Shown: positions 3,594 through 10,558 of the stretch, one piece after another
Layout: every line of letters starts with the position of its first letter
Numbering within the stretch: the first letter of the stretch is position 1
DNA from: Candidatus Aenigmatarchaeota archaeon
Lineage (GTDB): Archaea; Aenigmatarchaeota; Aenigmatarchaeia; CG10238-14; SCSR01
Direction: 5' to 3'
DNA length: 32,589 nt
Assembly (NCBI GenBank): GCA_039000165.1
Contig: JAWBTW010000008.1
Coordinates: 1-32,589, forward strand
Notes under the pieces: model-generated
Told to the model about the DNA's origin: nothing
Databases searched by the model: none
Seen by the model: the letters and a program-made list of their open reading frames with translations, nothing else
Made by a program: the position numbers and the translations under genes

Positions 3594-3655
3594 GGTTTCA
3601 TAAAGACAGTTCGTTCTTCATCTTTCATCAGACGCTGTCAGTTAAGTCATCAACC
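3594..3655 (-). ncRNA. Box C/D-like guide RNA in the 23S leader (module A; predicted U2504 and A2600)
   Basis: C UUGAUGA, guide ending CUGACAGCG(U), D' CUGA, C' AAGAUGA, guide containing CGAACUGUCU, D AUGA, GGUU/AACC ends; matches 23S 712-720 and 614-624. Confidence 0.75.
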
Positions 3656-3702: not shown

Positions 3703-3760
3703 AGCTCGTTAGGTGCCCATTTCTTCATCTTTTATCAGTTAGAAGGGCAAACTCATAGCT
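3703..3760 (-). ncRNA. Box C/D-like guide RNA in the 23S leader (module B; predicted U2552)
   Basis: Co-varied K-turn AUGAGUU/AACGA, D' CUGA, C' AAGAUGA; guide UGGGCACCU perfectly complementary to the A-loop at 664-672. Confidence 0.75.
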
Positions 3761-3900: not shown

Positions 3901-3972
3901 TGGACCGGCGGGGATTTGAACCCCGAACCTCCTCGTTGCAAGCGAGGCGATCTACCGTTGATCTACCGGCCC
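3901..3972 (-). tRNA. tRNA-Ala(UGC)
   Basis: Cloverleaf, CCUCG-CU-UGC-AA-CGAGG anticodon arm, G3-U70 pair, no encoded CCA. Confidence 0.97.
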
Positions 3973-6331: not shown

Positions 6332-7881
<1,550 letters not shown>

Positions 7882-10081: not shown

Positions 10082-10330
10082 TTAAGCCTTGTAACCTAGC
10101 TTTTCTAAAAGTTCTTTCACATCTTCTGGCTTAACCCCAAATTCTTTCGCTATTTCTTCAGCATTAAGCGGCGGTTTATACTCTTTTATCTTAAGCGTTT
10201 TTGTTTGAGAACGTGAAAATTTAAGGAGATGAAACTCATAAAAGGTTCTATCTTCTAGGAAAATTGGAAATACCATAAAAGCTATTTCATAGTCGTTTTC
10301 TTTTTTTACAATTTTTGTAGGAACTATCAT
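10082..10330 (-). CDS. Hypothetical protein (possible C-terminal HTH)
   Basis: 82-aa ORF; AEEIAKEFGVKPEDV segment. Confidence 0.6.
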   Translation of the reverse strand: MIVPTKIVKKENDYEIAFMVFPIFLEDRTFYEFHLLKFSRSQTKTLKIKEYKPPLNAEEIAKEFGVKPEDVKELLEKLGYKA

Positions 10331-10368
10331 AATAATAAGGAAAAAGTGAAAAGATAAATCCTTTTAAA

Positions 10369-10476
10369 TGCTGGGACCGGGATTTGAACCCGGGACTTCG
10401 GCGTTTCATCTTTCATCTTCTTTCAAAGCTCATAAAGCTTATGAGCGCCGCGTTCTAACCGCTGAACTATCCCAGC
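10369..10476 (-). tRNA. tRNA with CAU anticodon, most likely elongator Met, with a 35-nt intron (10404-10438)
   Basis: G1-C72, CGGCG/CGCCG anticodon stem; best BHB is UCAU/AUGA helix with AA|G and AA|C bulges, i.e. position 38/39. Confidence 0.92.
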
Positions 10477-10558
10477 TTATTTAATTTTTCTCTTATTTAA
10501 TTTTTATCGGTTAGCTTTATAGGTTTGTGCTTCCTAATTTTTAAAATCTGGGAAGAAC

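Follow-up and report, generated by a model that had tools for sequence, protein, structure and literature searches.

A tRNA-Met intron of a Candidatus Aenigmatarchaeota archaeon as a probable single-kink-turn guide for methylation of its own wobble base

The intron of an elongator tRNA-Met gene in the genome of a Candidatus Aenigmatarchaeota archaeon probably encodes, in cis, a C/D-type guide with a single kink-turn directing 2'-O-methylation to the wobble cytidine in the tRNA that carries it (Cm34). The gene lies in contig JAWBTW010000008.1 (assembly GCA_039000165.1), and the window means here the whole stretch of this contig that was analysed, 32,589 nucleotides (nt). In the unspliced pre-tRNA, the intron strand UUAUGAGC would pair with the anticodon loop from G31 to A38, and directly 3' of it UUGA and (A)AGAUGA would fold as a kink-loop (K-loop) able to bind L7Ae and thereby Nop5-fibrillarin. 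Methylation by fibrillarin would fall on the wobble C34, which pairs with the guide's fifth base upstream of box D'. The pre-tRNA would next refold into a competing bulge-helix-bulge (BHB) conformer, through a second AUGA copy and a CUUU/AAAG helix, and the splicing endonuclease would then excise the intron. This reading is carried by the motif and its register, by their conservation and covariation in relatives, by a splicing motif separate from the guide, by parallel units in other tRNAs of the same genome, and by the genes for the proteins concerned, all of which are established in the sequences described below.

Anatomy and identity of the tRNA-Met gene

The intron reads GCU-UUAUGAGC-U-UUGA-AAG-AAGAUGA-AAGAUGA-AA (Table 1). 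The antisense element ends one base before D', and the G that pairs with C34 is the fifth base upstream of the UUGA box. The internal pair UUGA-AAG-AAGAUGA is a K-loop by the criterion used for the box C/D small RNAs (sRNAs) of archaea, and it is the only kink motif in the intron. The guide, with 8 base pairs (bp), falls short of the usual 10-12 nt. An initial annotation of positions 10404-10446, which run exactly from G31 through the last intron base, had described a 35-nt intron with a single K-loop, in which an exact complement of anticodon-loop positions 31-38 is followed by U, UUGA and AAGAUGA and D'+5 falls on C34. Each of these elements is found in the letters at the positions of Table 1, and the partner of guide position 5 is gene index 34, a C. 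When the intron was shuffled 1,000,000 times by mononucleotides, AUGAGC appeared in 7081 shuffles, AUGAGC-N-NUGA in 204, and the complete arrangement AUGAGC-N-NUGA-(3-7 nt)-GAUGA in only one; the arrangement is not a product of chance.

Table 1. Parts of the tRNA-Met gene in the window, and K-loop units of other tRNA genes of the genome (prefixes such as C4 are our labels for contigs)
Feature	Position	Strand	Remarks
Elongator tRNA-Met (CAU) gene with intron	10369-10476	minus	Matches Rfam RF00005 at 59.9 bits; anticodon loop holds a 37-nt insert; unit in intron, target C34
5' gene parts		minus	GCUGGGA (acceptor), CGGCG (anticodon stem) and CUCAUAA (loop), followed by the 35 nt
3' exon, C39 to A73	10369-10403	minus	Starts CGCCG; normal T arm
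Target strand GCUCAUAA, G31-A38	10439-10446	minus	G31 at 10446, C34 at 10443, A38 at 10439
Intron, 35 nt (i1-i35)	10404-10438	minus	38/39 frame; 10405-10439 in the 37/38 frame
Guide UUAUGAGC	10428-10435	minus	Full Watson-Crick complement of GCUCAUAA (31-38), 8 bp
One-base spacer U	10427	minus	Guide position 1
D'-like box UUGA	10423-10426	minus	
K-loop bases AAG	10420-10422	minus	With A20 and A21 of C', 5 nt between D' and the GA of C'
C'-like box AAGAUGA	10413-10419	minus	GAUG facing UUGA: G.A, A.G, U.U, G.U
Second AAGAUGA copy	10406-10412	minus	
AUGA in second AAGAUGA	10406-10409	minus	3' strand of BHB central helix, with U33-U36
AAAG	10410-10413	minus	Pairs with CUUU (10434-10437) as inner BHB helix; overlaps last C' base
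tRNA-Trp	C4:46764-46873	plus	Unit in intron; target C34
tRNA-Leu-CAA	C9:26832-26949	plus	Unit in intron; target C34
tRNA-Leu-UAA	C6:33225-33346	minus	Unit in intron; target U34
tRNA-Gln-UUG	C9:15028-15146	minus	Unit in intron; target U34
tRNA-Ser-UGA, unit in 5' leader	C1:43604-43617	minus	Target U34; gene at C1:43454-43599, minus
tRNA-Cys GCA	C13:14411-14514	minus	Unit in intron, its guide pairing with the 3' intron-exon junction; C39 at position 5

A search of positions 10330-10520 with Rfam, ranked by E-value, returned the tRNA and noise only, with no C/D family. ARAGORN without its intron option missed the gene, and with the option (-i) misread it as tRNA-Ser. Run in this way on the whole genome, ARAGORN gave many wrong isotypes and false introns, and standard tRNA annotation is unreliable here; we used its output solely as a list of candidate tRNA places.

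The identity of the tRNA was judged from its own features and from the gene content of the order. It has G1-C72, A73 and the anticodon stem CGGCG/CGCCG, and is not initiator-like, having no GGG/CCC stem; a CAU tRNA that is initiator-like, with A1-U72 and several introns, lies elsewhere in the genome (C3:35163-35287). A search for TiaS_FLD (PF08489), the domain of agmatidine synthase, had its control positive in four model archaea and no match in any of the order's 41 genomes, namely this one and 40 relatives, of which 19 have a completeness of 90% or more. This makes a CAU tRNA-Ile2 unlikely, and elongator tRNA-Met is the best reading of the gene at 10369-10476. It also follows that AUA must be decoded without agmatidine in this order, possibly via a UAU tRNA-Ile, for example, of which none was identified.

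The source genome comprises 783 kb in 25 contigs, the window being C8, with an estimated completeness of 91.6%, and has genes for fibrillarin (C6:24109-24750), Nop5 (C6:23422-24063) and L7Ae (C6:37340-37618). In a class sample of 371 genomes, 356 have fibrillarin, among them all 98 of high quality; as it is near-universal, its presence cannot be correlated with that of the guide motif. The sequencing runs found to contain the window's DNA, 20 in number, are all hot-spring or vent metagenomes, with no RNA run among them.

Conservation, covariation and splicing in relatives

We compared the whole tRNA-Met gene, intron included, with 60 relatives by BLAST, which yielded 29 loci. All 29 carry GAG(C)-N-N(U/C)GA with a (G)AUGA-type box 2-8 nt downstream, and all keep the core AUGAG together with the complement of N31. 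The spacer is always exactly one base, though no pattern had been imposed on these loci, while what surrounds the unit varies: the stretch from A37 to the guide (2-17 nt), the inter-box loop and the 3' tail all differ, and the flanking loops range from 2 to about 20 nt. Alignment of the introns of relatives had been proposed as a check in the initial annotation; the BLAST loci keep the unit of guide, D' and C' with invariant spacing throughout. A compatible C' box is present in 24 of the 25 unique genes of this set that could be parsed. Among relatives D' occurs as UUGA, CUGA, AUGA and UCGA, with the consensus CUGA in three loci (L016, L032 and L039), and two genes from the same genus (L014 and L015, 98% identical) have the consensus C box AUGAUGA where the window has AAGAUGA.

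The same arrangement can be followed in larger samples. The pattern GCUCAUA, GAGC, NNNGA and a later UGA matches 159 of the 371 genomes of the class sample, compared to 10 for the reversed pattern, with matches in 52 of 69, 14 of 23, 15 of 19 and 3 of 3 genomes of four families (f1, f4, f5 and f2, respectively). A looser version, in which N31 and its partner are free, matches 149 of 250 genomes of a sample of the phylum, compared to 17 with a match to the reversed pattern. Two members of the order do not match the GCUCAUA/GAGC pattern. One of them (G053, locus L194) nonetheless has the unit, with A31:U; for the other (G051, locus L193) there was no CAU tRNA in the stretch inspected. A separate observation on these genes is that many relatives have a second intron in tRNA-Met (L028, L032, L039, L153, L196, L198, L207, L208 and L212), located in the anticodon stem near 30/31 or past the anticodon arm, and that the upstream ones end with a conserved GGCGA(A/U)(G/A).

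Beyond the phylum, we scanned species-representative genomes for CUCAUA, AUGAG-NNN-UGA and a T-arm word, with box C' left out of the pattern, and obtained at least 120 stretches. Among the 120 listed, 67 are chance matches in bacteria or coding DNA. The remainder are tRNA-Met genes from metagenome-assembled genomes (MAGs) labelled Micrarchaeota, Woesearchaeota, Aenigmatarchaeota and Nanoarchaeota, and also from MAGs labelled Nanohaloarchaea, Parvarchaeota and Hadarchaeota and some 'Methanosarcinales' co-assembly bins; the Micrarchaeota include the complete chromosome of Fermentimicrarchaeum limneticum. Of the matches listed, 32 of the 37 unique parsed tRNA genes have a C' box compatible with a kink-turn or K-loop, compared to 4 of the 67 chance matches, and the five tRNA genes without one have 2-bp stems or 10-11-nt loops. 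Some candidates were set aside on inspection. A second Fermentimicrarchaeum match (G373:C1:784776) lies in a stretch that is not tRNA-like, and the only match listed from a cultured archaeon, in Methanogenium marinum (L151), is a chance one outside any tRNA gene.

Outside the window's order, a stem takes the place of the inter-box loop. It begins immediately 3' of the GA of D' and ends exactly 3 nt before a GA, leaving an NNU bulge (GAU in 18, UAU in 10, AAU in 9 and UGU in 4). There are 22 sequence combinations among these stems, and their first pair is G-C in 29, U-A in 8, A-U in 3, C-G in 2 and G.U in 2. A stem that follows D' and leaves an NNU bulge before a GA has the anatomy of a kink-turn. 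The guide covaries as well. With neither base fixed by the search, the one opposite N31 makes G:C in 25 genes of the BLAST set, and A:U in 26, G:C in 10 and U:A in 1 among the matches listed from the scan. In 20 further places picked for the guide AUGAGA or AUGAGU, four of which are not tRNA genes, we find U31:A in five and A31:U in six. The duplex extends into the intron in 18 of the 84 unique genes, where it closes a hairpin whose loop has 3-5 nt, and the substrate would therefore be the unspliced precursor.

Pairing with the anticodon loop is normal for archaeal introns, and the strand that makes the BHB motif is considered here. In the window, the 38/39 frame gives a central helix of U33-U36 with AUGA in which four of four pairs form, and a 4-bp inner helix of CUUU with AAAG, compared to one of four pairs and no inner helix in the canonical 37/38 frame; both frames lead to an identical mature tRNA. 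An archaeal BHB has two 3-nt bulges, with a 4-bp helix between them and further helices at the flanks. A37-A38-G make up the 5' bulge of the 38/39 frame, and the 3' side has just two free bases, AA, opposite an unpaired C32, so that the motif is a relaxed one. Relaxed BHB motifs are known in connection with DPANN endonucleases of broad specificity (PMC5829648). Relatives have a separate 3'-terminal splicing element, either U(G/A)AG-AN before A38 or (A/G)UGA-NN before C39. The former, of 37/38 type, makes four of four helix pairs in 12 of 84 genes, with 27 showing the pattern with C34 unpaired, and the latter, of 38/39 type, does so in 18 of 84, with inner helices of 1-8 bp. The window's intron falls in the latter class. 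The earlier placement of the best BHB at the non-canonical 38/39 is the better fit in the window, with the reservation that the motif is relaxed and the position not general in relatives. The initial annotation had also allowed that the guide segment might serve only as an alternative BHB helix in homologues; there, a separate 3' element makes that helix, and UUAUGAGC, judged by these pairings, is not the BHB helix.

The two folds compete. The guide hairpin is calculated at -9.6 kcal/mol and the BHB conformer at -7.6 kcal/mol, and an unconstrained fold of the gene adopts the guide hairpin. Because AAAG overlaps box C', the BHB and K-loop/guide conformers would be mutually exclusive, and because they are near in energy a switch between them is plausible.

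Parallel units in other tRNAs and in rRNA

When 46 tRNA genes of the genome and their 90-nt leaders were scanned for NUGA-(3-7)-GAUGA, nine K-loop units were found in or beside them. Six of the nine have 8-10 contiguous pairs with their own tRNA and place N34 opposite guide position 5 (Table 1, tRNA-Met to tRNA-Ser-UGA). Genome-wide the K-loop pattern is not enriched, with 134 matches compared to 133-161 in shuffles; on the sense strand of tRNA genes there are 8 matches where about 0.35 are expected. The tRNA-Ser-UGA unit lies in the leader, as GACUCAAGGU-CUGA-AUAAA-GAUGA, and stops four bases before the mature 5' end, with its guide pairing to the anticodon loop of its own tRNA across the exon-intron junction. 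As the leader takes no part in the BHB, splicing cannot explain this complementarity. The tRNA-Cys unit is aimed at C39 and recalls the Um39 of Haloferax tRNA-Trp. A simple genome scan for a separate gene guiding C34 of tRNA-Met found AUGAGC-N-NUGA at three other sites, none with a C' box, and a strict pattern for a full C/D sRNA had no match anywhere in the genome.

Several further motifs in this genome deserve mention in their own right. The introns of tRNA-Ser CGA (C14:6987-7124, minus strand) and tRNA-Ser UGA, of 53 and 59 nt, contain perfect CUGA-3 nt-AUGAUGA units as well as box C-like and terminal CUGA motifs, and could be complete C/D sRNAs. Within the 16S gene of the window (6332-7881), 83 nt at about 7071-7153 (minus strand) in the GAUUAGAUACCC loop region do not align to the archaeal small-subunit rRNA model. 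This stretch is closed by CACGAG/CUCGUG and holds CUGA-UGAAAA-GAUGA (7111-7125), upstream of which GGGAGUAUCUU pairs, by eye, at 8 of 9 positions with the adjacent exon sequence AGAUACCCC; it resembles a mini-intron of rRNA that carries a guide unit. A different picture emerges for the spacer between tRNA-Ala (3901-3972) and the 5' end of 23S (3556), where K-loops of the form CUGA-loop-GAUGA occur at 3618-3631 and 3725-3738 (minus strand). Their flanks are self-complementary by eye (GACAG/CUGUC and GCCC/GGGC), and they have the look of pre-rRNA hairpins that bind L7Ae, not of guides. Three further matches to the K-loop pattern lie within 23S, at 1004-1017, 1148-1159 and 1525-1536.

Known systems, alternatives and significance

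The K-loop is said to have been described by Nolivos in 2005 as the C'/D' motif of Pyrococcus sRNAs. The window's motif resembles it in having a D' box, a short loop, a C' box and tandem sheared G.A pairs, with the loop replacing the canonical stem; the Pyrococcus K-loop, however, is accompanied by a terminal kink-turn in the same RNA, whereas the one in the window stands alone. This is the first of the points that weigh against a guide function. Neither the exons nor the 35-nt intron have a second NUGA, or a box C upstream of the guide; the terminal pair of box C (RUGAUGA) and box D (CUGA) is absent, and the intron is therefore not a bipartite C/D sRNA. With one kink motif, it also lacks the spacing of about 12 nt that Tran reportedly described in 2005 between the two kink-turns of an archaeal C/D sRNA.

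The boxes of the window are degenerate, position 2 of C' being A, not U, and D' being UUGA, and the duplex is short, at 8 bp in the window and 4-10 bp among relatives. There is a mismatch at N31 (A31 or G31 facing A) in 5 of the 16 tRNA genes among the places picked for AUGAGA or AUGAGU, and also in locus L108; position 31 appears to belong to the duplex usually, not always. The fourth non-canonical pair, between the first base of D' and the base after GAU, is not maintained in Micrarchaeota-type genes, with A opposite G in 10 of them. AUGA complements UCAU, so that GAUGA in a tRNA-Met intron can arise for splicing alone; in the window, the second copy fills this role. The K-loops of the rRNA spacer have no obvious target, and the module may serve other L7Ae-dependent roles. 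Finally, Hardin and Batey (2006, PMC1635284) found a hemi-complex with a single motif to be active but not site-specific, and termed the bipartite architecture of natural complexes absolutely conserved. Engineered half-mer or hemi C/D ribonucleoproteins do show that one kink-turn and one guide can assemble L7Ae, Nop5 and fibrillarin and methylate (PMC1635284, PMC6239191), though they are artificial, and in crystal structures half-mer RNAs assemble two per Nop5 dimer (PMC6239191, PMC3608112). By analogy, two precursors on one Nop5 dimer would be a possible, if speculative, way round the loss of specificity.

Natural systems offer closer parallels. The elongator tRNA-Met of Nanoarchaeum equitans has a 66-nt intron that gives rise to a stable, abundant C/D-like RNA, 'potentially guiding RNA methylation', with a consensus box D, a variant box C and a 6-bp G-C hairpin (Randau 2012, PMC3491384). 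The host gene is the same and both organisms are DPANN, and the 6-bp hairpin resembles the D'-C' stem of two of our loci (L200 and L107); the window's intron, by contrast, is half as long and has a loop where N. equitans has a stem, and the excerpted passages of that report name neither a target nor a register. The N. equitans intron may be a homologue, a stem-type member of the same family. The design described here is thus partly anticipated by that report, the only precedent in print that we found for tRNA-Met.

Another example is the intron of euryarchaeal pre-tRNA-Trp, which guides Cm34 and Um39 in Pyrococcus (sR50) and Haloferax volcanii, that is, positions 34 and 39 of its own tRNA (PMC4090602, PMC2584109, PMC7994747). 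It is likewise intron-encoded, targets its own wobble base before splicing, and has competing guide and BHB folds; the tRNA-Trp intron of the present genome has the mini design. The euryarchaeal intron is, however, a complete bipartite sRNA (C, D', C' and D, 65-104 nt) with two guides, compared to a lone K-loop with a single guide here, in 35 nt and in a different tRNA. Cm34 of tRNA-Met itself is C/D-guided in Haloferax (PMC2584109, PMC4033218), and guides acting in trans are known as Haloferax sR-tMet (Joardar 2011, cited in PMC4033218 and PMC6601510), Pyrococcus sR49 and, in human, SNORD97/SCARNA97, which also serves elongator tRNA-Met (PMC6601510). These share with the window's intron the target nucleotide and the N+5 rule, and the haloarchaeal guide acts on an intron-bearing precursor; unlike the intron, they are encoded separately and have terminal C/D boxes. 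In Pyrococcus, C/D sRNAs have four tRNA targets, namely the wobble bases of Leu-CAA, Leu-UAA, Met and Trp (PMC7994747), all of them among the N34 positions that this genome would target from its own tRNA genes.

We infer from sequence patterns that the proteins bind, that the methyl group is transferred, that the events follow the order proposed, and that the intron acts in cis rather than between two pre-tRNAs. Three other explanations bear on these steps. In the first, the kink-turn and the antisense strand form an L7Ae-dependent folding or timing device. It would keep the anticodon loop sequestered and so delay or license splicing, or some other modification of the anticodon, with no methyl transfer. 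The K-loop hairpins without a target in the pre-rRNA spacer of the same window would fit such a device, as would two conformers that exclude each other and lie 2 kcal/mol apart, and the absence of site specificity in single-motif complexes in vitro (PMC1635284). We nevertheless consider it unlikely, as it leaves unexplained why N34 stands at the fifth position upstream of D' in six tRNAs, one of them served from a leader, and why a one-base spacer never varies amid variable surroundings.

A second explanation, which we judge slightly less likely still, keeps the guide function but assigns it to the excised and probably circularised intron, as a stable, active small RNA guiding in trans, on spliced or unspliced tRNA-Met or another RNA. 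Here one may point to the accumulation of the N. equitans intron (PMC3491384), to in vitro work on pre-tRNA-Trp that favoured trans action (PMC2584109), and to the 8-bp duplex of the window, which uses exon target bases only. Guides of 6-8 bp would be weak in trans, though, and the pairing that in 18 of 84 relatives continues within the same molecule into its intron bases, with a 3-5-nt hairpin loop, and the tRNA-Ser-UGA leader guide that spans an exon-intron junction both speak for cis.

The last explanation, that UUAUGAGC is no guide and merely an alternative or auxiliary splicing helix, with boxes that follow from AUGA complementing the CAU anticodon, starts from the normal pairing of archaeal introns with the anticodon loop and from the second AUGA copy that does make a BHB helix here, but it is already disfavoured and very improbable given the separate 3' element of relatives, the retention of a C' box that had not been selected for among the matches listed, the covariation of the stem that defines the kink-turn, the occurrence of the guide-D'-C' unit with non-CAU anticodons and in a leader, and the shuffles of the intron.

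If the cis-guide reading is correct, it would overturn the textbook view that only tRNA-Trp carries its own intronic guide. A 2014 review of tRNA introns describes tRNA-Trp as the unique intron encoding a modification guide (PMC4090602), and Grosjean 2008 has the guide for Cm34 of pre-tRNA-Met as 'always' a separate gene (PMC2584109); our search of the open literature found no single-kink-turn self-guides in tRNA-Met or DPANN tRNAs. It would likewise overturn the view that natural C/D guides need two box pairs for site specificity (PMC1635284). A 35-nt natural substrate would also bear on the ruler by which fibrillarin is placed, on the question of cis or trans action left from tRNA-Trp, and on the coupling of modification to splicing, with three recombinant proteins.

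More tentatively, natural half-mer C/D guides acting in cis, from tRNA introns, 5' leaders and perhaps rRNA insertions, may be the standard means of ribose methylation in the anticodon loop of DPANN archaea, an extension that we rate as somewhat less than an even chance. Such guides would function without the bipartite architecture thought obligatory, might do so with two precursors per Nop5 dimer or with the tRNA body as a second anchor, and could be the ancestral form of free-standing two-guide sRNAs. The cis-guide reading, if correct, would also explain why the tiny genomes of DPANN archaea retain many tRNA introns: the intron would replace an sRNA gene.

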